From a virus, in IMG/VR virus record IMGVR_UViG_3300032271_000682, positions 25,796 through 89,795 of that record: a stretch of DNA of 64,000 nucleotides; one strand, given 5' to 3'. Of this stretch, positions 13,008 through 64,000 are shown one piece after another. A program made the translations under genes and the position numbers. The notes beneath the pieces are model-generated. The model was given only the letters and a program-made list of their open reading frames with translations, was not told the DNA's origin and made no database searches. Numbering within the stretch: position 1 is the first letter of the stretch; every line of letters begins with the position of its first letter.

Positions 13008-13036
13008 TTGACAATAACGATAAATACGTGTATACT
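13008..13036 (+). promoter_or_regulatory. tmRNA promoter: sigma70 with embedded late-type motif
   Basis: TTGACA(13008)-17-TATACT(13031); GATAAATAC at 13019-13027. Confidence 0.8.
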
Positions 13037-13042
13037 ATGTTT

Positions 13043-13440
13043 TTAAAGAATTGTTGTAAACCCTGAGTAATCAGGACAGAAGTAAAGAGAAAAGTGTCCA
13101 AGACGAGGGTTCGATTCCCTCCAGCTTCACCATAAAGGGATTACATGAATTACATTGACAATACAATAGTGCTTGAAAACGGCAGAACAGTACATTATAC
13201 AAAAGATGTATCTAAAATGTCGCTTAAAGAAGCTAATAAAATGTTAGTCACTATTAGAAAGTCTCTTTATGATGGGGCTGACCAGGTTTCGATTGGGCAA
13301 AGAGTAACGGAATGGACAACTCGACACAGATAGTCGTAAAAAGTAAACAACCAATAAATGCTAACGATGAAAATTGGGCATTAGCCGCTTGAAAAAGTTG
13401 CTTAGGGTAGGAAATACCTCGTAACAGAAAATACCAATAG
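13043..13440 (+). ncRNA. ssrA: Circularly permuted (two-piece) tmRNA; tag ANDENWALAA
   Basis: T-arm gagggTTCGATTccctc and CAGCTTC-A-CCA ending 13132 precede the 5' end GGGGCTG at 13274; tag frame 13360-13392. Confidence 0.93.
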
Positions 13441-13464
13441 GGACTTTCGAGTCCCTATTTTTTT
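13436..13464 (+). terminator. Intrinsic terminator after tmRNA
   Basis: aatagggact-ttcg-agtccctatt followed by T run. Confidence 0.9.
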
Positions 13465-15774: not shown

Positions 15775-15848
15775 TTCGGTCAATGTAATCATTGACAATA
15801 AATCGCTTTCGTAATATAATTACTACTTACTTACTTCAAGGAAATTAC

Positions 15849-16949
15849 ATGGCACAGTCATCAACTGACAGTTATTCAGTCAATGCCGTTTTGGCACAAA
15901 AAGCAATTCTAGGATGTTTCGAGGCGGATTTATCTGCATTTATTTGGGGACCCCCAGGAATTGGTAAATCAGAATTAGTTGCCAAAATCGCTGAAGAAGG
16001 CGGTGGGCATATCATCGATATGCGTATGGCTCAAATGGAACCCACTGATTTACGTGGCATTCCATTCTTCAATCAAATTACTAAAAAAATGGATTGGGCT
16101 GACCCATCTGAATTGCCAAGCGAAGAACTTGCCAGCAAATATCCATTCGTCATCTTATTCTTAGATGAAATGAATAGTGCCCCTAGTACCGTTCAGGGCG
16201 CCGCATATCAATTGATCTTAAATGGTCGAATTGGTACATATGTAAAACCAAAAAATGTAAGAATTGTAGCCGCCGGTAATCGAGATAGTGATCGTGGTGT
16301 TACTTATCGTATGCCAATGCCATTGGCTAATCGATTTATTCATATTGAAATGAAACCAGATTTTGCTTCTTGGCAAGAATGGGCAATGATGAACGATGTT
16401 CATCAGGACGTAGTGTCATACTTGTCATATGCAAAACAACATATGTATGATTTTGATGCTAAATCTAGCAGCAAAGCATTTGCCACTCCTCGCTCATGGG
16501 GTTTTGTTAGTAAGTTTCTGTATACATGTACTGACCCAGAAACTTTATACACATTAGTTGCTGGTTCTGTAGGCGAGGGATTAGCTACATCTTTGATGGC
16601 TCATCGTAAAATTGCTTCTAAACTTCCAAATGCCGCTGATATTTTATCGGGTAAAGTAACAACATTGGAAACTAAAGAAATTTCAGCTCAATATTCATTG
16701 ACAGTTTCTTTATGTTACGAAATGAAAGATATTACTGATAACAAACGAGCTACTCGTGATGAATTCAATAAAATCTTTGATAACTTTCTTGGTTATATGT
16801 TAGCTAATTTTGAACCAGATTTGATTATTCTTGGTGGAAGAACTGCTCTCAAGACATATAAATTAGACTTTGATGTTACTAAACTTACTAATTTTGAAAC
16901 TTTTCATAAAAAATACGGACGACACATTCTTTCGGCTGTAAAAAAGTAA
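15849..16949 (+). CDS. MoxR-like AAA+ ATPase
   Basis: WGPPGIGKS, LFLDEMN, AAGNR, LANRF, TPRSW; promoter TTGACA(15792)-17-TATAAT. Confidence 0.9.
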   Translation: MAQSSTDSYSVNAVLAQKAILGCFEADLSAFIWGPPGIGKSELVAKIAEEGGGHIIDMRMAQMEPTDLRGIPFFNQITKKMDWADPSELPSEELASKYPFVILFLDEMNSAPSTVQGAAYQLILNGRIGTYVKPKNVRIVAAGNRDSDRGVTYRMPMPLANRFIHIEMKPDFASWQEWAMMNDVHQDVVSYLSYAKQHMYDFDAKSSSKAFATPRSWGFVSKFLYTCTDPETLYTLVAGSVGEGLATSLMAHRKIASKLPNAADILSGKVTTLETKEISAQYSLTVSLCYEMKDITDNKRATRDEFNKIFDNFLGYMLANFEPDLIILGGRTALKTYKLDFDVTKLTNFETFHKKYGRHILSAVKK

Positions 16950-16970
16950 TCAATCATTTACGGAGAAATA

Positions 16971-18221
16971 ATGAGTAATATTCACGCCAATAGTACACAT
17001 AAAAAAAAGAATGACAAATTTTCTAATTTAATCGGCAAAACTGATTTAAAAATTGACGAAAAAGCTCGTGATATGTTACTCATGGCACGAGTGAGTTTGT
17101 TAATCAATCATCCATTTTTTGGAAACTTAGCCACTCGTCTTAGAATGGTTAATGCTGATGAATGGTGTAGCACTGCTGCTACTGATGGTCGATTCTTTTA
17201 TTACAATAGTCGATTCATTACAATGTTGCGTGAAAAAGAAGTTGAATTTCTTTTTGGACACGAAGTGTTGCACGTAGTCTACGATCACATTGGTCGTACT
17301 GAACATCGTGATCATGAATTGTTTAATATTGCTAATGATTATGTGGTTAATGCTGATTTACGGCGACACAAAATCGGAGAATTCATTACATCAGTTCCTT
17401 GTTTGTATGAAGTAAAATACGATGGAAAGGCTAGCGAATGGGTCTACGATGATCTACTGAAAAATGCTCAACACATTGACATTAATTCTCTTATCGAACA
17501 AATGATTGATCAACATCTTGAAGGTGAAGATGATGACTCAGAAGAGGGAAAGGGTCCAGCCAAAATGACACAGGCTGAACGAGATGAATTACGTCAAGAA
17601 ATTAAACAAAGCATTATCAGCGCAGCACAATATGCATCAGCGGGTGAATTGCCTAAGGGGGTAGCTCGTTTATTAAATCAGTTTACTAATCCAACAATGC
17701 CATGGCAAGAATTGATTCAGACCAACTTGACTTCTTCCATTAAAAATGATTATTCTTTTTCTAGACCTAATCGTCGCGGCTGGCATCTAGATGCTGTTTT
17801 GCCAAGTATGACTCCGGGAGAAGAAATAGATGTATGTATCGCTCTTGATATGTCTGGTAGTATTTCTACTAAAGTTGGAAATCAATTTATCAGCGAAGTC
17901 GCTGGAATGATGGATATGTTTGCTGGCTATAAGATTCATATTTTTTGTTTCGACACAAATGTATATGCTGAGGCTGATTTTGATAGTCAGAATTTGGAAA
18001 CTATCGATGAGTATAAACCAAAGGGTGGCGGCGGTACTGACTTTACTGCGATCTTTAATCATCTTAAAAATCGTGGAGAACCAGTAAATCGTTTAATCGT
18101 ATTTACTGATGGTCTGCCTTTTGGAAGTTGGGGAACAGAAGATTTCTGTGATACAACTTGGATCATTCATGGAAGTAAAGATATTATTCCTCCATGGGGA
18201 ACCTACGCTTATTTTGATTAA
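16971..18221 (+). CDS. Metallopeptidase-like (HEXXH) + VWA domain protein, MoxR partner
   Basis: TAATDG, HEVLH; DMSGS MIDAS, GGGGTDF, FTDG. Confidence 0.88.
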   Translation: MSNIHANSTHKKKNDKFSNLIGKTDLKIDEKARDMLLMARVSLLINHPFFGNLATRLRMVNADEWCSTAATDGRFFYYNSRFITMLREKEVEFLFGHEVLHVVYDHIGRTEHRDHELFNIANDYVVNADLRRHKIGEFITSVPCLYEVKYDGKASEWVYDDLLKNAQHIDINSLIEQMIDQHLEGEDDDSEEGKGPAKMTQAERDELRQEIKQSIISAAQYASAGELPKGVARLLNQFTNPTMPWQELIQTNLTSSIKNDYSFSRPNRRGWHLDAVLPSMTPGEEIDVCIALDMSGSISTKVGNQFISEVAGMMDMFAGYKIHIFCFDTNVYAEADFDSQNLETIDEYKPKGGGGTDFTAIFNHLKNRGEPVNRLIVFTDGLPFGSWGTEDFCDTTWIIHGSKDIIPPWGTYAYFD

Positions 18222-22970: not shown

Positions 22971-25900
22971 ATGTCAGACATTAAAAAATTTATGGATATC
23001 ATGATGGAAACTACCGCTGGAGCAACCTCTAGTGGTTCAGTCGCTGAAGTATCTCAGCCAATGATGTCTACTCAACGAAGAGTAAATCCTAGTATCTATA
23101 CTAATCAAGCTTCAAAATCTGATGATCATTGTCCTGAGTGTAAATGTAATCCATGTGAATGTCATGAAGCAAGCAGAAAAGCTCCAACAGCACCAAAAGC
23201 AAAAGAATTTGGTTTATGGCAAAATAGCGTATTAGCTGGAAAAGCACAAAAAGATAAAAAAACTAAAAAAGAAACCAATGAATCAGTTAAAATTTTAAAA
23301 ACTACTAAAACTCCTACTGGTAAGCAAGTACAAGGAAATTACGGTCTAGATTATCAGCCGGAAGAAAAACTAGATATGTACGGGCACTCAATGAGAGGAA
23401 GTCCAAAGTTACATTCTCCTAGAATCCCTGACAATAAATATCCTGGACAAGGACCTGGACGCCCTGAAAATATTAGCTCAACTGATGCATTTGACGTTTT
23501 AAAAAAAGATCCATTTGGTCGTGACAGCAATATGACAGAAGATGATCTAGAAGAAGATTGGGAAGACATTAAGAATGCTGGTAAAAAAACAATTGGGGCT
23601 GGAGCAATAGGGTTAGCAGCATTAGGCGGAGGCGGAACGCAAGCACAAACCGTTCCTGCTAATACAGGTACAAACGTAGCTCAAACACAGTCGGTTTCAT
23701 CTAATGCAGCAATAGTAAAAAGTTTGGTGAATCCCGAGGCACGACAAAGATTCTTAAAACAACACTCGGATACTACGGCTCAATTAAAAGATCCAAAATA
23801 TGATCATAATCCAGATGCTTTAGCACAACATGCAACTTATCCTAAAGAACAACATAGTCAATATATACAAAATGTCAAGAATGTGGCAGAATTTCAAAAT
23901 CCCTATCAGATTATTCGCACTGCGTTAAACATGGCAGGATTAACTCCACAGGAAGTTTTACAAAATCTACCTAAAGGATACAAACTTCCATCAACAGAGC
24001 CTAAATCTGAGCCAGTGCGAATTCCAGGTGATCCAGGATACAAAGCACCGGTAAACGAATTTAAAAAATCTTCAAGAAATATTAATGAACTTGAATATGG
24101 TCAAGGTCAGCGCCAACTAAGATTAGCAGAAGTAGATGATAAAAGTGAACTAGATAGCTCTGGTATTCAAAGAATTATCAAAAAAATGGCGGCTAAACAT
24201 CAAGACGAAAAATGGACTAAAGAGCAGTTAGCTGCATTAGGTAAAAAATTAGCAGCGGCTGGTCGTAGAGAAGAAGAACGTAAGAATAAAAAGGGCGTTA
24301 AAGAAACAGCAAACAAACCTAAATCTCCAAATCGTAATGATCCATGGGAACAAGGTTGGTCTGCTGCTCATCGACTTCAAAGCAACTATGAGTGTCCATA
24401 TAAAAAAGGTACCGCTGAGTACGAGCGTTGGATGAATGGTTACGAAGAAGGCAGCTCACAACGTGGACATTATGATGAAAGTGTGAAGGAAGGCTCTGAT
24501 CAACAGTTAACGATTCAACAGTTAGCTACTATCAGTGACGAAGCATTAGACAATGCTTATCACTATGGTCGTAGCACACCGGGAAATACATTTGGTTGGC
24601 AGGCAAATTTAAAATCTGCTGCTTATGCTAAACAAATGATTGATAAGGGTATCACTGATATTGAAGCAATTAGTGACGCTATTCATAAAGGATGGAATGT
24701 TACTGCTAAAGCATTTGTACAAAATCCTGATAAATTTGACGACACAAAAAAATTAAAAGCAGCTGGCAAACTAGAAGCAAAACTTCAACAACGAGAAAAA
24801 TTGATGAACATTGGTTATAGTCAATTACCAGACGAAGAACAAGAAAAAGATCGTGTAGTTGCTAGAGCGTTATTACAAGCCATTACAGGTCAACAAGATA
24901 TGTCTGAAGCAGTAGAAGATCATACTAAAATCAAAGTTGATAGAATATCATCTAAATATCCAGGAACAAATATTTTAACTGGGAGTTCGTCCGTTCGTGT
25001 TGGAAGAAAGGGAAAATCTTCAATTGGAACATTTCCAACTTTTGAAATAGATGGACACAGATATATAACTCTTGCTGACGGAAATAAAATAGAAAGAGCG
25101 TTGAGACAAGATGTAGCGGAAGACCTAGAAGAAAGCAAACGCACAATGAGTCGTGCTGCTAAGGGTAATGAAAAGTATGGTAAAGATGGAATGCAGGCAT
25201 TAGCCAAAGCAGGTCGTGAAGGTAAAGATTTAGATAAAATCAGAGCCAAGTATAACAAATATGACGAAGACATTGAAGAAGGTTGGAGTCAAAAATACAA
25301 AAATTCAATCAACTGCTCACATCCTAAAGGATTTTCACAAAAAGCACATTGTGCAGGAAAAAAGAAACACAACGAATCAATAGAAATGGAAATGACTTGT
25401 GAAGATTGTGGTATGTGTAAAACACACGGAGATCATAATCACAACGCTCTTGATGAAGCCTGTTGGAAAGGTTATCACAAAGAAGGTATGAAAACTATGT
25501 TTGGAAAAGAATACCCTAACTGTAAAAAAAATAAAAATGAGAGTCTAGAAACTTATATTCGTAAAGGTGAGTGTCCTGGGTGTGGAGGATCAATGATTGC
25601 TGAAGGGCAATTAAACGAAAAACAAGATGCGTGTTATCACAAAGTAAAATCAAGATACAAAGTGTGGCCTAGTGCTTATGCGTCAGGAGCATTGGTTCAA
25701 TGTAGAAAAAAAGGTGCTGCCAATTGGGGTAACAGTACAAAAAAAGAATCCATTGATCTAGATGAAAATCTACATGACTGGTTCGGAAAAGAAAAATGGG
25801 TGCGTATGGATACGAAGGGCAACATAAAAGGCCCTTGCGCTAGAGGTTCAAAAAGTGAAGGTAAGCCCAAGTGCTTACCACAAAGCAAAGCACACAGTAT

Positions 25901-26336
25901 AGGTAAAAAAGGACGAGCCAGTGCCGCCACGAAAAAACGCAGAGAAGATCCAAATCCAGAACGCAGTGGAAAGGCTATCAATGTTAAGACTTCTACTAAA
26001 TCAACAGCTAAGACTGAAGGAATGTCGGCAAAAATCAAACCTATTCAAGAATTATCTTCTGCTATATTAGATAGATACAAAGAGAAGGCTAAGAAATCTT
26101 CGGATGAATTAATCAGACAGGGTAAATATCGTAAGGCTAATGACAGAACCATGAATGTTATGAAGGCAACAGGTAAACAAATTGATAATACTGTATCAAG
26201 TATTAGAAAATCTTTGAGAAATGACAAAAGCGTAGCAGAAGGATCAAATACAAAAGTTACAAAAACATCTTCTGATATTCGTGCAATAAATAAAGCTGCT
26301 ATGAAAGAAATATCATCACTGAAAAAGAATAAATAA
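22971..26336 (+). CDS. Large modular late protein, putative head-packaged polyprotein
   Basis: GATAAATAC at 22939; many [LIV]-x-E sites separating basic/Cys-rich modules. Confidence 0.7.
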   Translation: MSDIKKFMDIMMETTAGATSSGSVAEVSQPMMSTQRRVNPSIYTNQASKSDDHCPECKCNPCECHEASRKAPTAPKAKEFGLWQNSVLAGKAQKDKKTKKETNESVKILKTTKTPTGKQVQGNYGLDYQPEEKLDMYGHSMRGSPKLHSPRIPDNKYPGQGPGRPENISSTDAFDVLKKDPFGRDSNMTEDDLEEDWEDIKNAGKKTIGAGAIGLAALGGGGTQAQTVPANTGTNVAQTQSVSSNAAIVKSLVNPEARQRFLKQHSDTTAQLKDPKYDHNPDALAQHATYPKEQHSQYIQNVKNVAEFQNPYQIIRTALNMAGLTPQEVLQNLPKGYKLPSTEPKSEPVRIPGDPGYKAPVNEFKKSSRNINELEYGQGQRQLRLAEVDDKSELDSSGIQRIIKKMAAKHQDEKWTKEQLAALGKKLAAAGRREEERKNKKGVKETANKPKSPNRNDPWEQGWSAAHRLQSNYECPYKKGTAEYERWMNGYEEGSSQRGHYDESVKEGSDQQLTIQQLATISDEALDNAYHYGRSTPGNTFGWQANLKSAAYAKQMIDKGITDIEAISDAIHKGWNVTAKAFVQNPDKFDDTKKLKAAGKLEAKLQQREKLMNIGYSQLPDEEQEKDRVVARALLQAITGQQDMSEAVEDHTKIKVDRISSKYPGTNILTGSSSVRVGRKGKSSIGTFPTFEIDGHRYITLADGNKIERALRQDVAEDLEESKRTMSRAAKGNEKYGKDGMQALAKAGREGKDLDKIRAKYNKYDEDIEEGWSQKYKNSINCSHPKGFSQKAHCAGKKKHNESIEMEMTCEDCGMCKTHGDHNHNALDEACWKGYHKEGMKTMFGKEYPNCKKNKNESLETYIRKGECPGCGGSMIAEGQLNEKQDACYHKVKSRYKVWPSAYASGALVQCRKKGAANWGNSTKKESIDLDENLHDWFGKEKWVRMDTKGNIKGPCARGSKSEGKPKCLPQSKAHSIGKKGRASAATKKRREDPNPERSGKAINVKTSTKSTAKTEGMSAKIKPIQELSSAILDRYKEKAKKSSDELIRQGKYRKANDRTMNVMKATGKQIDNTVSSIRKSLRNDKSVAEGSNTKVTKTSSDIRAINKAAMKEISSLKKNK

Positions 26337-59642: not shown

Positions 59643-61520
59643 TTACTTAGTTTCAGTAAATTCCGCATCTACTACTGGATCATCTTTTGAAGCATTTTCT
59701 TTTGCCATCTTTTTTTCCATTAATGGTCCAATTGTGGCGTACAATTCATCTACTGATTTAGTAATTGCTTCTACATCTTCACTTGTAAGTTTAGATTCAA
59801 CTGATTCGATTGCTGTATTAATTGCAGTCTTTTCATCTTCGCTTAATAATTCACCGTGTTCTTTCAGATCACGCTTAAACTCATGAACTGAACTTTCGGC
59901 ACGATTACGAGTTTCGATCAATGTTCTAGTTTGCTTATCGCTTTCAGCATTTTCTTCAGCTTCACGAATCATCTTTTCAATCTCAGCTTCACTTAAACCA
60001 GAATTAGATTTGATAGTAATTTTATTTTCTTTTCCAGTTGCTTTATCTGCCGCTTTGATATGCATAATGCCGTTGGCATCAATATCAAATGAAACTTCAA
60101 TTTGTGGTAAACCACGACGAGCAGGTGCAATACCTTCAAGATTGAATTCACCCAATAATTTGTTATATTGAACTAACTCACGTTCACCTTGAAAAGCTTT
60201 AATAGTGACAGCAGATTGATTATCTTCAGCAGTTGAAAATACTTGACTTGCCTTGGTAGGAATAGTCGTATTCTTCTGAATAAGTTTAGTCATAACTCCG
60301 CCCATAGTTTCAATACCAAGTGATAGTGGTGTTACATCTAGTAGTAACACGTCATTACGATCACCAGCAAGTACAGCACCCTGAACTGCGGCTCCTGCTG
60401 CAACTGCTTCGTCTGGGTTAACATCTTTACGAGGAGTTTTGCCAAATAACTTTTCTACTGCTTCTTGAACTTTGGGCATACGAGTTTGACCGCCGACTAG
60501 AATAACTTCATCTATGTCACTTGCCGACACTTTAGCATCCTTCATGGCAACTTTACATGGCTCAATACTACGAGCGATTAAATCTTCTACCATGCTTTCA
60601 AGTTTAGAACGTGTGATAATAATATTCATATGACGTGGTCCACTAGCATCAGCGGTGATATATGGTAGATTGACTGCAGTTTGTTGAGCAGATGACAATT
60701 CAATCTTAGCTTTTTCTGCTGAATCCTTAAGTCTTTGAAGTGCCAATACATCATTTTTCAAATCAACTCCGCTGTCTTTCTTAAACTCTTCTACTAAGTA
60801 ATCCATGATACGTTGATCGAAGTCTTCCCCGCCCAAGAATGTATCACCATTGGTACTTAATACTTCGATTTGTTTATCGCCTTCGACATTCGCGATTTCA
60901 ATGATTGACACGTCGAATGTACCACCACCCAAATCGTAAACAGCAATTTTCCTATCACTGTTATCAGTTTTGTCAACCCCATACGCAAGAGCAGCAGCAG
61001 TGGGTTCATTAATAATGCGAAGTACTTCCAAGCCTGCGATTTTACCAGCATCTTTAGTTGCTTGTCTTTGACTGTCGTTAAAGTACGCAGGAACTGTGAT
61101 AACTGCTTGAGTAACTTCATGTCCTAAATAATCCTCTGCTGTCTTTTTCATTTTTCTAAGAACTTCAGCACTAATTTGTGGTGGAGCAAGTTCTTTGTCA
61201 TTTACACGAACCCATGCATCACCGTTTTTGGCTTCCATGATAGTAAATGGCATCATGTCGATGTCTTTTTGTACTGCTTGTTCTTTGAATTTACGACCAA
61301 TTAGTCTTTTGGCAGCATAAATTGTATTTTTTGGATTGGTTACTGCTTGACGTTTAGCACTAGCGCCTACTAAAATTTCGTCGTTTGTGTATGCAATGAT
61401 TGATGGTGTTGTACGTGTACCTTCGCTATTTTCTAGAACTTTAGCGACGCCGTTTTCTACGATAGCAACTGCTGAATTTGTGGTACCTAAGTCAATACCT
61501 ATTACTGATGATTTGCTCAT
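59643..61520 (-). CDS. dnaK: Chaperone DnaK (Hsp70)
   Basis: [38 protein letters not shown]-terminal DAEF; AAGGAG RBS. Confidence 0.98.
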
Positions 61521-61643
61521 GATTATCTCCTTTAAGTAAGCAAGAATGTACATAGACCTCTATCGAGCATCTACATAATTATTTATCATTGTTATTAAAT
61601 GTTTTGAATTTATCTTATTAAGACAAAATGATAAATACTAATT

Positions 61644-63425
61644 ATGAAGATAACCGACATCATTTCTGAAAGTTCTAATAAAGTCACATGGGAACATTAT
61701 CCATTAGATAAAGATACCATTACTGGTTGGGCGAAACTACCTCGTGGTGCTCCCGGAGGGTTTAAGCCATCTAAATGGCAAGATAGAATCAGATGGGATC
61801 AAAATGATGTACAAGATTGGAAAAAATCATTTCCCAAAGACAAGCCAAAAGAAGTAGACGAGGCAGGAATATATAATCCTAACGGTAAAACATTTAGAGG
61901 GTCTAGTAACCCAATGCCACAGTTTGATCCCAACGATGCAATGATGCAGGGGGATTATGATCAGCTCAATACAGTTACCGCAACTGATCAGGGTGGAATT
62001 GATAAAGTTGAAAATGATATTGATAGAAATCGTCTTAAAGATATTATTCGTTCAGGTATGAAACTTTTAACTTCAGAAGAAAGAGAAGTATTAAATCTTA
62101 GATATTGGCACGATCTTGATCATAATAAAGTTGGTAAAAAAATAGGATTAAATACACAAGCTGTTTGGAAAATAGAAGCTAAAGCACTAAGAAAATTACG
62201 TGATCAGTCTAATGCTCCTGAAATACGTCGATATATGGACCCGACTTTTAAACCTAAGCCGGCACCAATGGCCATCGGCAATGTAGTAAAATCTTTATCA
62301 ACCGCCAATGGACCTAAAGTTGGTTCATACTATGAAATGGGATTTAAAGATGCTATAAATGGCACAAAGTCAATGTCTGCTCATAATGCTATGTCATCTG
62401 ACGAAACGTGGGATCAACGCAGTCAATATGACGCAGGATACGAATCTGGCAAAAGAAAAATAAAAAGCAGCAAAGTCAAAGAATCACTCAGCCCATTTAA
62501 CGATGATCACAGTGAACTAGATCAATATGTCAAAGAAGAATTCAACAAAGAGATAGATGAAGTAAAATTCAATCCTAATCGTCGTGGCTTCTTAAAGAAA
62601 GCTGGAGCTGTTGCTGCTAGTGCTGCTATGCCTAAGGGATTAGCTGGTGCTGCCATGAAAGCTGTTACGCCCTCTGCTAGCAGTATAATATCAGTTCCTT
62701 TTGCTGGATTATCTGCAATAGATTTAGATGATATTATTAATCTTCTTGATAGCGCAGAAGCAAAAAACATGAGACCCGGTTATGATCCATATGATCTAGA
62801 TATTATGAAATCCATAGCCCAAGATGCTGCTCGTGAGAGTTGGGGAAATGCATGGTTTATGAATGGAAATTCTGCTAAATCTTTTATTGATGCAGTTGAG
62901 CTAGGCAGAAAGAATGGTATGTCTGATGTAGATATTATAGATATTCTTAAGTCTACAGCCACTAATCTATATACAGATGAACTGGAGCAACTAAAACCTG
63001 AAGATAAGAGAGAAGTACAATCACGATCATTGAGAAATCCAAACTTACCAAAAAATTCAGAATTAGCTTCCAGTGACGCTGACTTAGAAAAAGTAAGCTC
63101 GGATTGGGCAAAGCACTCATTAAACCCATTAAATAAAACATCAGATACACCTACTAGATTGAGTTCATTGGCTCGTGCTGCTGGAGCACAAATTGGACGT
63201 ACTATGAAGAACGTGGGCAAGGCAACTGCCAATACGATACTAAATCAACCAGATAAAGACATGGGTAAAATTGAACCTACTACTTCACCGATTGCGTTAC
63301 CTGCACCAACTATGAAGCACGGTATGCAAATTCCTAAACAAAAATCAAAAGTATCCGCTCATCAAAAAGATGATGAAGACGATAAAGAACTTGAAAGATT
63401 GAAAGAAATGTTAAGAAGAACATAA
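61644..63425 (+). CDS. Modular late protein with MKITDIISE leader; internal sigma70 region-4-like HTH and Tat-like motif
   Basis: GATAAATAC at 61630; LTSEEREVLNLRY...VWKIEAKALRKLR; NRRGFLK. Confidence 0.7.
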   Translation: MKITDIISESSNKVTWEHYPLDKDTITGWAKLPRGAPGGFKPSKWQDRIRWDQNDVQDWKKSFPKDKPKEVDEAGIYNPNGKTFRGSSNPMPQFDPNDAMMQGDYDQLNTVTATDQGGIDKVENDIDRNRLKDIIRSGMKLLTSEEREVLNLRYWHDLDHNKVGKKIGLNTQAVWKIEAKALRKLRDQSNAPEIRRYMDPTFKPKPAPMAIGNVVKSLSTANGPKVGSYYEMGFKDAINGTKSMSAHNAMSSDETWDQRSQYDAGYESGKRKIKSSKVKESLSPFNDDHSELDQYVKEEFNKEIDEVKFNPNRRGFLKKAGAVAASAAMPKGLAGAAMKAVTPSASSIISVPFAGLSAIDLDDIINLLDSAEAKNMRPGYDPYDLDIMKSIAQDAARESWGNAWFMNGNSAKSFIDAVELGRKNGMSDVDIIDILKSTATNLYTDELEQLKPEDKREVQSRSLRNPNLPKNSELASSDADLEKVSSDWAKHSLNPLNKTSDTPTRLSSLARAAGAQIGRTMKNVGKATANTILNQPDKDMGKIEPTTSPIALPAPTMKHGMQIPKQKSKVSAHQKDDEDDKELERLKEMLRRT

Positions 63426-63797
63426 ATGAGAGCTGACGAATTCATAACCGAAGAAAAAAAAGGTAAATTAAGAAAAGGTCATGCTTCTGCAATGCCTGGA
63501 GCCATCAAATTTAGAGACGAGGGCGTCGATAGAATTTATAATTTAAATAGAATTATGATGGCCGCTGCGATGTCGGATGGAAGCAGTACTGCTCCTTTGG
63601 AAATGGATTCTAGTAGTTGGGCAGAAAAATTTAATACGGCGCATCCTTACACTGAATTGGAACATAAAATGATGCAACAAGCATTCGCCACGATTGATTC
63701 TAATCATCATGAAGTCATTAGTGATCACAGAAGCAAAGAAAGAGAAGATACTCATAAAATTAGTCCTCATCTCCCATTTAAAGGTTATCCAAGATGA
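63426..63797 (+). CDS. Late protein with MRADEFITE leader
   Basis: Leader family; YNLNRIMMAAA...HPYTELE. Confidence 0.7.
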   Translation: MRADEFITEEKKGKLRKGHASAMPGAIKFRDEGVDRIYNLNRIMMAAAMSDGSSTAPLEMDSSSWAEKFNTAHPYTELEHKMMQQAFATIDSNHHEVISDHRSKEREDTHKISPHLPFKGYPR

Positions 63798-64000
63798 GAG
63801 CTAAAGAATTCATCGTAGAAAATAATTTATTGGGCAGTACTGTTCCAACTAGTGATTCAAAATTATCTGTGTCTAATGCTGATGCATTACCTTCGGTGTA
63901 TTCAATTCCAAAACTTCCAAACAATGACTTCTATAAACAATATAGATTTGGTGTGGCAATAGCAGGCGCTCGTAGTGCAGAACAACGAAGAACAGAACCA
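63794..64000 (+). CDS. Late protein with MRAKEFIVE leader (partial)
   Basis: ATGA coupling; open to the window end; YKQYRFGVAIAGA parallels the previous gene. Confidence 0.7.
   Translation, partial: MRAKEFIVENNLLGSTVPTSDSKLSVSNADALPSVYSIPKLPNNDFYKQYRFGVAIAGARSAEQRRTEP

Follow-up and report, generated by a model that had tools for sequence, protein, structure and literature searches.

An internal twin-arginine-type signal behind a predicted head-protease site in a mosaic protein of a candidate T4-like jumbo phage

How could an export signal be used when it lies in the middle of a phage protein? The question is raised by an open reading frame (ORF) at positions 61644-63425 (+) of a 64,000-nucleotide stretch of viral DNA (hereafter the window), the final 64 kb of G000, an 89,795-bp IMG/VR virus record. 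Its product, P0001, contains at about residue 310, directly after K-E-I-D-E, a stretch that resembles a twin-arginine translocation (Tat) signal; the translation matches exactly what the initial annotation had reported there. That annotation supposed that cleavage after I-D-E exposes the signal, so that an injected fragment could be exported through, or jam, the host Tat translocon. We found this interpretation to be partly supported. The explanation that we favour, to which we give a probability of roughly 0.45, is that P0001 is a T4-style internal-head polyprotein in which cutting by the prohead protease would expose a Tat signal, which would serve in export once the fragment is injected; jamming of the translocon and superinfection exclusion are roles that the fragment might conceivably also play.

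The Tat-like motif is real and exceeds chance. Residues 312-337 comprise NRRGFLKK, 11 residues rich in Ala and Gly, and P-K-GLAGA|A, within a segment that begins with V307 (position 62562) and has its twin arginines at residues 313-314 (62580-62585). The Tat consensus (S/T)-R-R-x-F-L-K is matched by N-R-R-G-F-L-K (residues 312-318), with the Asn replaced by Ser or Gly in most homologs. The uncharged hydrophobic region (h-region), AGAVAASAAMP (residues 320-330), leads into P-K-G-L-A-G-A|A, where small residues at -3/-1 would, by sequence rule only, suit cuts ahead of residues 335-338. Mean Kyte-Doolittle hydrophobicity of the h-region is 1.28, as against 1.19-1.97 in Tat signals of the candidate host lineage. 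The NCBIfam model TIGR01409 (TAT_signal_seq, cut-off 16.7) scored 17.8 bits on a 50-residue fragment and 15.9 bits on a 284-residue fragment. We found one RRxF[LI]K match in the six frames of the window, where residue shuffles gave an expectation of 0.04, and RRxF[LI]K followed by an uncharged 10-mer arose in none of 300 shuffles. The phage segment shares 58% identity over 31 residues with the genuine, N-terminal Tat signal of a metagenomic bacterial protein (L088). The arginines of P0001 are not N-terminal, standing at residues 313-314 of 593. An internal translation start for the segment was ruled out: there is no in-frame ATG, GTG or TTG between residues 281 and 328, and the signal is thus not an independent start within this ORF.

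The signal is one of several modules in P0001, which are as follows.

61644-63425 (+): mosaic ORF P0001, a single open frame of 593 residues with leader, sigma-70 region-4 (sigma-r4) module, linker and Tat-type cassette
61644-61670 (+): leader MKITDIISE (residues 1-9), ending I-S-E; resembles the T4 capsid-targeting sequence
61854-61862 (+): V-D-E (residues 71-73), predicted junction ahead of the sigma-r4 module (AGIYNPNGKTF...)
62022-62210 (+): folded sigma-70 region-4 domain (residues 127-189), with a Pfam Sigma70_r4 match at residues 139-186
62484-62561 (+): conserved acidic linker SLSPFNDDHSELDQYVKEEFNKEIDE (residues 281-306), bounded upstream by V-K-E (residues 278-280); low predicted local distance difference test (pLDDT) values
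62553-62561 (+): I-D-E (residues 304-306), predicted prohead-protease site immediately ahead of the signal; the E306 codon is 62559-62561
62562-62663 (+): Tat-type signal peptide (residues 307-340), made up of a VKFNPN n-region, RRGFLKK, the AGAVAASAAMP h-region and a PKGLAGA|A c-region
62670-63038 (+): passenger, a compact all-helical domain (residues about 343-465); pLDDT 80-94, and 75-88 in the full-length model (AlphaFold2)
63159-63353 (+): C-terminal cassette element (residues 506-570), LSSLARAAGAQIGRT..NQP, DMGKIEPT..ALPAPT and GMQIPKQKSKV; predicted disordered
63378-63422 (+): C-terminal helix DDKELERLKEMLRRT with L-K-E (residues 586-588), a terminal version of the KEL-DE junction that occurs inside longer polyproteins

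The distribution of candidate cut sites follows this modular plan. Head proteases of T4-type and giant phages all cut after Glu (PMC5694885). P0001 contains only six hydrophobic-x-Glu sites, ending at residues 9, 73, 280, 298, 306 and 588, and all six lie in low-pLDDT linkers; the folded parts hold none, against 3.4 expected (P = 0.017). The sigma-r4 domain and the all-helical domain of the passenger (residues 346-462) are the only confident folds in the AlphaFold2 models, the rest being low, including residues 190-345. The acidic linker, which contains both V-K-E (residues 296-298) and I-D-E (residues 304-306), recurs behind Tat cassettes in P0010-P0017 and P0022. From its sequence, I-D-E306 is a predicted cut site.

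Conservation among relatives links this site to the signal. Two large protein searches yielded 33 related proteins (20 + 13), all metagenomic, with only 21 clusters matched out of 1.84 billion. The block [LIV]-[DNA]-E-x-x-F-[ND]-P-x-RR-[GK]-FLK was present in 20/20 occurrences in 18 close-family proteins, and in all 20 the E is fixed at -7 from RR and RRxFLK is invariant. More divergent signals, with different h-regions, occur as the second copy in P0022, in P0027, P0028, P0033 and P0034, and in a 182-residue protein of the related viral contig G001; these retain RRxFLK and an uncharged h-region, and carry [LIVM]-x-E 2-10 residues upstream throughout. As a background, a hydrophobic-x-Glu lies 5-16 residues upstream at 17% of positions only. 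Both the conservation of RRxFLK and its linkage to an upstream xxE site, the point on which the initial annotation had staked its idea, were therefore borne out.

The signal is also portable. It stands ahead of at least four unrelated passengers, and the cassette tail (LSSLARAAG...NQP, ...ALPAPT, GMQIPKQKSKV) is conserved whichever passenger is present; this is how a targeting element that moves between proteins would behave. The C-terminal cassette element, which forms invariant columns in alignment A1, is kept behind unrelated passengers in P0018, P0020, P0022, P0027, P0028, P0030 and P0033. In P0006, P0018, P0020, P0026, P0028, P0033, P0034 and the 182-residue G001 protein, the signal stands at the true N-terminus after a leader of 9-20 residues, and three of these N-terminal versions exceed the TIGR01409 cut-off (22.8, 20.2 and 18.5 bits).

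The 182-residue G001 protein (L105:17956-18504 (-), equivalent to G001:C1:77956-78504) is unrelated to P0001. It consists of the leader MKISEILVE, QELDE, the signal ISRRGFLKGAVGAAATGLGLGA..SKAQSA (TIGR01409 22.8 bits) and a repetitive passenger rich in Pro and Trp, and is an independent reuse of the design of leader, Glu site and Tat signal.

Several relatives carry more than one export-type segment. Two Tat-type signals per chain were found in four proteins (P0005, P0018, P0022 and P0023), and segments resembling general secretory (Sec)-type signals, of the form ..KSK LAGAALAGAAAFGGGGAQA or G-W/L-K-S-K LAGAALAGAAAFGGGG AQA, occur within the long polyproteins P0011, P0012, P0013, P0016, P0022 and P0028. 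P0011 and P0016 are carried on contigs of 233 kb and 423 kb. A hydrophobic segment of the Gly-zipper type comes after V-D-E in P0017, P0019 and P0023. Both the Sec-type and the Gly-zipper segments lie 5-8 residues past a hydrophobic-x-Glu; for the Sec-type the site is (I/L/V)-(E/D)-E and the distance 5 residues in each case. Several export signals in one chain are sensible only if the chain is cut. The relatives as a whole are mosaics, in which shared modules in varying order are joined at hydrophobic-x-Glu.

What, then, might cut the chain? The start of P0001, MKITDIISE, is similar to that of T4 IPII and IPIII, MKTYQEFIAE (T4 record AF158101), and the IPII/IPIII leader is a capsid-targeting sequence that is taken off by gp21 (PMC10229621, PMC3012670, PMC9958956). 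G000 has five leader-like N-termini where 0.08 would be expected, and G001 has 11 where 0.18 would be expected, an enrichment of about 60-fold over shuffles, and the leader-bearing genes cluster in arrays around ORF 61644-63425. In G001 (159,889 bp) the genes around the ortholog are ordered as they are around the window ORF. The two ORFs share 94% identity over the Tat cassette, and differ by 29 synonymous and 29 non-synonymous changes (520 codons). We found that G001 encodes a head module in T4 gene order: Gp23 (E 1.6e-77), Peptidase_S77 (1.4e-25) and Portal_T4 (1.2e-100). The Peptidase_S77 protein (L005:9402-10040), a gp21-type protease (90 bits), is 34% identical to T4 gp21 and of equal length. 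The propeptide of the G001 capsid protein ends L-A-E, just ahead of the block that aligns with mature T4 gp23; in T4 gp23 itself, L-T-E at residues 63-65 forms the end of the removed 65-residue piece. The proposal of a capsid-protease site in P0001 thus gained support from its IPII/IPIII-like leader and from the gp21-type protease, Gp23 and gp20-type portal of G001.

These observations suggest the following sequence of events. ORF 61644-63425 would encode an ejected internal-head polyprotein of a T4-like jumbo phage of about 350 kb, a genome size that follows from the CheckV estimate that G000 is 26% complete. The capsid-targeting-like leader would guide the precursor to the core of the prohead, and a gp21-type protease, cutting after the Glu of hydrophobic-x-Glu, would split the modules at their disordered linkers. 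The cut after I-D-E306 would create a new N-terminus, VKFNPNRRGFLKK..., that amounts to a complete Tat signal, with the RR consensus, a weak Ala/Gly h-region, a Pro-Lys c-region and small -3/-1 residues. The fragment would then be ejected with the DNA into the next cell, where host TatABC would send the 120-residue helical passenger and its tail to the periplasm and signal peptidase would take the signal off; the sigma-region-4 fragment would remain cytoplasmic. The presence of a cytoplasm-type module (sigma-r4) and an export-type module in one chain speaks for this scheme. On a broader scale, we tentatively propose a T4-like jumbo phage lineage whose head-packed polyproteins are cut into effectors, some of which, injected with the DNA and with Tat- or Sec-type signals newly exposed, would be re-exported to the periplasm by the translocons of the new host.

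Export of this kind would depend upon the Tat system of the host. The phage DnaK is closest to those of Burkholderiales, such as Polynucleobacter and Limnohabitans (66-73% identity). The window also contains a permuted two-piece transfer-messenger RNA (tmRNA) at 13029-13461 (+) (Rfam beta_tmRNA RF01850, 103 bits; tmRNA_permuted, 94 bits), and this beta-proteobacterial type fits the DnaK affinity. From these sequence affinities, the host is probably a freshwater member of the Burkholderiales. TatC is encoded in 5/5 genomes of the candidate host lineage, and none was found in the phage records. Native Tat signals of this lineage score 17-27 bits and have RR mostly within the first 12 residues (3-12). 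The predicted cut would leave the phage signals an n-region of 2-10 residues, as in the native ones, and after such a cut the phage signals would resemble native host-lineage Tat signals. Burkholderiales signals share with the phage's the RRxFLK motif and, after it, an h-region that is rich in Ala, Gly and Ser and about equally hydrophobic; they start the protein, however, whereas the phage signal stands behind 306 residues, or behind an acidic leader of 9-20 residues in homologs.

How does P0001 compare with known phage systems? T4 IPI, IPII, IPIII and Alt share with it a short M-K-x-x-x-E-F-I-x-E-type leader ending in hydrophobic-x-Glu, and T4 internal proteins, like those here, are encoded in arrays of genes for unrelated proteins that have the leader alone in common (PMC3012670). 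The T4-type protease, capsid protein and portal that go with such proteins are encoded in the relative G001. P0001 differs in having no sequence homology to any T4 internal protein, and in being a multi-module protein with several predicted internal cut sites, whereas T4 internal proteins undergo leader removal only. We know of no T4 internal protein with an export signal.

A second likeness is to polyvalent proteins (PMC5512222), in which, as in P0001, unrelated modules are strung in one phage polypeptide. Counting domains as for that class (at least two unrelated ones), P0001 pairs the sigma-r4 domain with a helical passenger unrelated to it, and its homologs show mosaic shuffling. Polyvalent proteins are delivered with the DNA, and since their modules have different destinations, processing is needed (PMC5512222). 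They contain a zincin-like processing peptidase, whereas Pfam, NCBIfam and PHROG scans found no peptidase family in P0001, which the prohead protease would cut in trans. The polyvalent-protein paper (PMC5512222) does not mention signal peptides, twin-arginine motifs or the periplasm, and in the collection of papers that we searched none mentions both twin-arginine signals and the capsid-targeting sequence; among the matches listed, none mentions the Tat pathway along with ejection proteins. We thus found no precedent in the literature that ties either T4 internal proteins or polyvalent proteins to export signals.

The initial annotation took Tat signals to work only when close to an N-terminus. 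That view is outdated: substrates with internal Tat signals are established and appear in a 2026 review, among them FecR, where a folded cytoplasmic domain precedes RR79-80 (PMC13673990, PMC12036975), and cleavage is therefore not strictly required. Accordingly, the strongest alternative, which we consider unlikely on balance, is that the signal functions without capsid cleavage. P0001 would be made during infection, TatBC would recognise the internal or N-extended signal as in FecR-like class V substrates, and the C-terminal domain would be exported in the producing cell, with the sigma-r4 part held at or near the membrane or freed by signal peptidase. In FecR, as in P0001, the twin arginines stand well away from the N-terminus and follow a folded domain with a connection to sigma-factor biology (residues 127-189 in P0001, ahead of RR313-314); moreover, in at least seven homologs the signal lies within 35 residues of the N-terminus, where cleavage would be unnecessary. 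Yet the FecR signal is an uncleaved membrane anchor and FecR an anti-sigma regulator, whereas P0001 has no FecR homology and combines a short h-region with signal-peptidase-type residues after it and a protease-type site directly upstream. With only 11 uncharged residues before the interrupting Lys331, and AxA-type sites after, the segment would probably make a poor membrane anchor. Chains with two Tat signals plus Sec-like ones, or with long cytoplasm-type modules downstream, would be hard to thread uncut, and this alternative leaves the strict linkage to hydrophobic-x-Glu and the T4-like leader unexplained.

Several points weigh against unmasking by the head protease. FecR-type internal signals can work uncleaved, so the uncut precursor might already be a Tat substrate. 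In the leader-plus-signal homologs RR stands at residue 22 and there is little to mask the signal while the protein is in the producing cell; these homologs could thus be made during infection as ordinary Tat substrates. The close family is of recent origin, and the count of 20/20 consequently represents few independent events. For P0001 itself, the TIGR01409 match is just at the cut-off, and the Pfam TAT_signal model (PF10518) gave 16.7 bits (E 0.007), under its gathering score of 22.7. No prohead protease was matched in G000's own 89.8-kb fragment; as G000 is a 26% fragment, the head module is deduced from its relative. The leader may not always mean packaging, since one leader-bearing enzyme of G001, the GH19 protein described below, is possibly a normal endolysin. 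Finally, to our knowledge no T4-family phage exports an injected protein.

It is improbable that the segment is not an export signal at all, and is instead a conserved linker rich in Ala and Gly, or an element by which a head-internal protein contacts a scaffold or a membrane, with its Tat likeness due to convergence or left over from a captured host gene start. The Pfam score under the cut-off and the predicted disorder of the signal region are consistent with such a role, and within a recent close family conservation may in part reflect inheritance. However, the divergent copies vary the h-region while retaining RRxFLK and the uncharged character, as is typical of signal peptides, and the three N-terminal copies that exceed the TIGR01409 cut-off, the identity to a genuine bacterial Tat signal and the portability of the segment across unrelated passengers all argue against such a role. 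A decoy, in which the exposed signal occupies TatBC (jamming) or the chaperones DnaK and SlyD and so disturbs host Tat export, is the least probable alternative: the phage DnaK (Hsp70) gene (window 59643-61553 (-)) divergently adjoins the ORF in G000 and G001, and a Tat review names DnaK and SlyD as binders of Tat signals (both speculative points), but a decoy has no need for small -3/-1 residues or for varied passengers with a conserved tail.

Injected phage proteins are thought either to work in the cytoplasm, where they counter restriction or modify RNA polymerase, or to make up the ejection channel. If the prohead protease does unmask Tat signals in packaged proteins, then pre-made phage proteins would reach the periplasm within moments of infection, ahead of gene expression, by a two-step route for virion cargo to the cell envelope. 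This would be a new level at which phages take over the host or control superinfection. It would also be a bacterial case in which proteolysis unmasks a targeting signal, and a natural model for delivering proteins with T4-type capsids. The internal position of the signal would also help to hold the precursor in the producing cell for packaging.

Of the two confidently folded modules, the sigma-r4 domain is the more readily classified (Sigma70_r4, E 1.8e-9, 37.4 bits, over the Pfam cut-off; pLDDT 67-80 in the full-length AlphaFold2 model), and it is the only part of the ORF matched by PHROGs. Pfam and NCBIfam scans gave no match to sigma-70 region 2 in P0001, which is therefore not a complete sigma factor; the module may be an injected region-4 mimic or decoy. 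Its start comes after VDE, VNE or VEE likewise in P0009, P0019 and P0004. The first module with sigma-r4 (window 61854-62480) is also found behind other modules in P0009, P0019 and P0021.

The helical passenger had no Pfam, PHROG or ESM Atlas match, Foldseek returned no structure at E <= 0.001, and the best VIA-align Z, 7.1 to Cmr5-type helical bundles, is under the meaningful level for helical folds. Similarly, the passengers of eight homologs belong to no Pfam family. Megablast and tblastn searches of 50,697 records of cultured phages gave no match to the ORF, and G001 was the sole related contig found in the viral contig collection that we scanned. Scans of genome and metagenome contigs yielded no further relatives, being swamped by Tat signals of the usual bacterial kind (498 and 594 stretches).

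Two candidate features at the ORF were rejected. A T4-type late promoter ahead of it, represented just by GATAAATA 6 nt before the ATG, was unconvincing and was not used. An antisense ORF of 82 residues over the signal region (62522-62770 (-)) is probably not a gene and mirrors the Ala-rich codons.

G000 has a GC content of 35%, and genes in the window include those for a family-B DNA polymerase, ClpX, ClpP, a radical-SAM enzyme and DnaK. At 15792-18221 (+), an AAA ATPase comes ahead of a putative metallopeptidase (DUF2201_N) that has a VWA-like domain (E 1.2e-38), a further phage peptidase that could in principle process polyproteins. An ORF of 1121 residues (window 22971-26336 (+)) has only a weak match to DUF5872; DUF5872-like modules (..VDRMV.HI.SSEKA.GKS..) also terminate the long Tat-cassette polyproteins P0010-P0017.

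Two genes lie immediately downstream of ORF 61644-63425.

63426-63797 (+): downstream gene of 123 residues with leader MRADEFITE, in the leader-bearing gene array; no Pfam family
63794-64000 (+), running past the window end: second downstream gene, with leader MRAKEFIVE; its G001 ortholog is L002:11781-12173

Other leader-bearing genes were seen in the G001 array. A GH19 protein of the chitinase or lysozyme class (L002:14052-14795 (+); Pfam E 7.4e-17) has the leader MRSEEFIVE, followed at once by a weakly hydrophobic segment, NLAAATMLGLSSLS, that resembles a signal-anchor-release (SAR) or Sec signal; two readings suit it, an ordinary SAR endolysin with a shared leader and a wall hydrolase that is ejected. 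Beyond it, at L002:14792-20946 (+), are three paralogous proteins of 643-721 residues, the one scanned of which matches Amidoligase_2. Their leaders of 12, 20 and 13 residues each end (I/L)-N-E right before the conserved (V/I)AMNPTA(Y/F), and such unequal leaders ahead of a conserved start would look like what is expected of removable propeptides. A leader-bearing GGACT/AIG2 protein is encoded near these three paralogs (L002:12175-12828).

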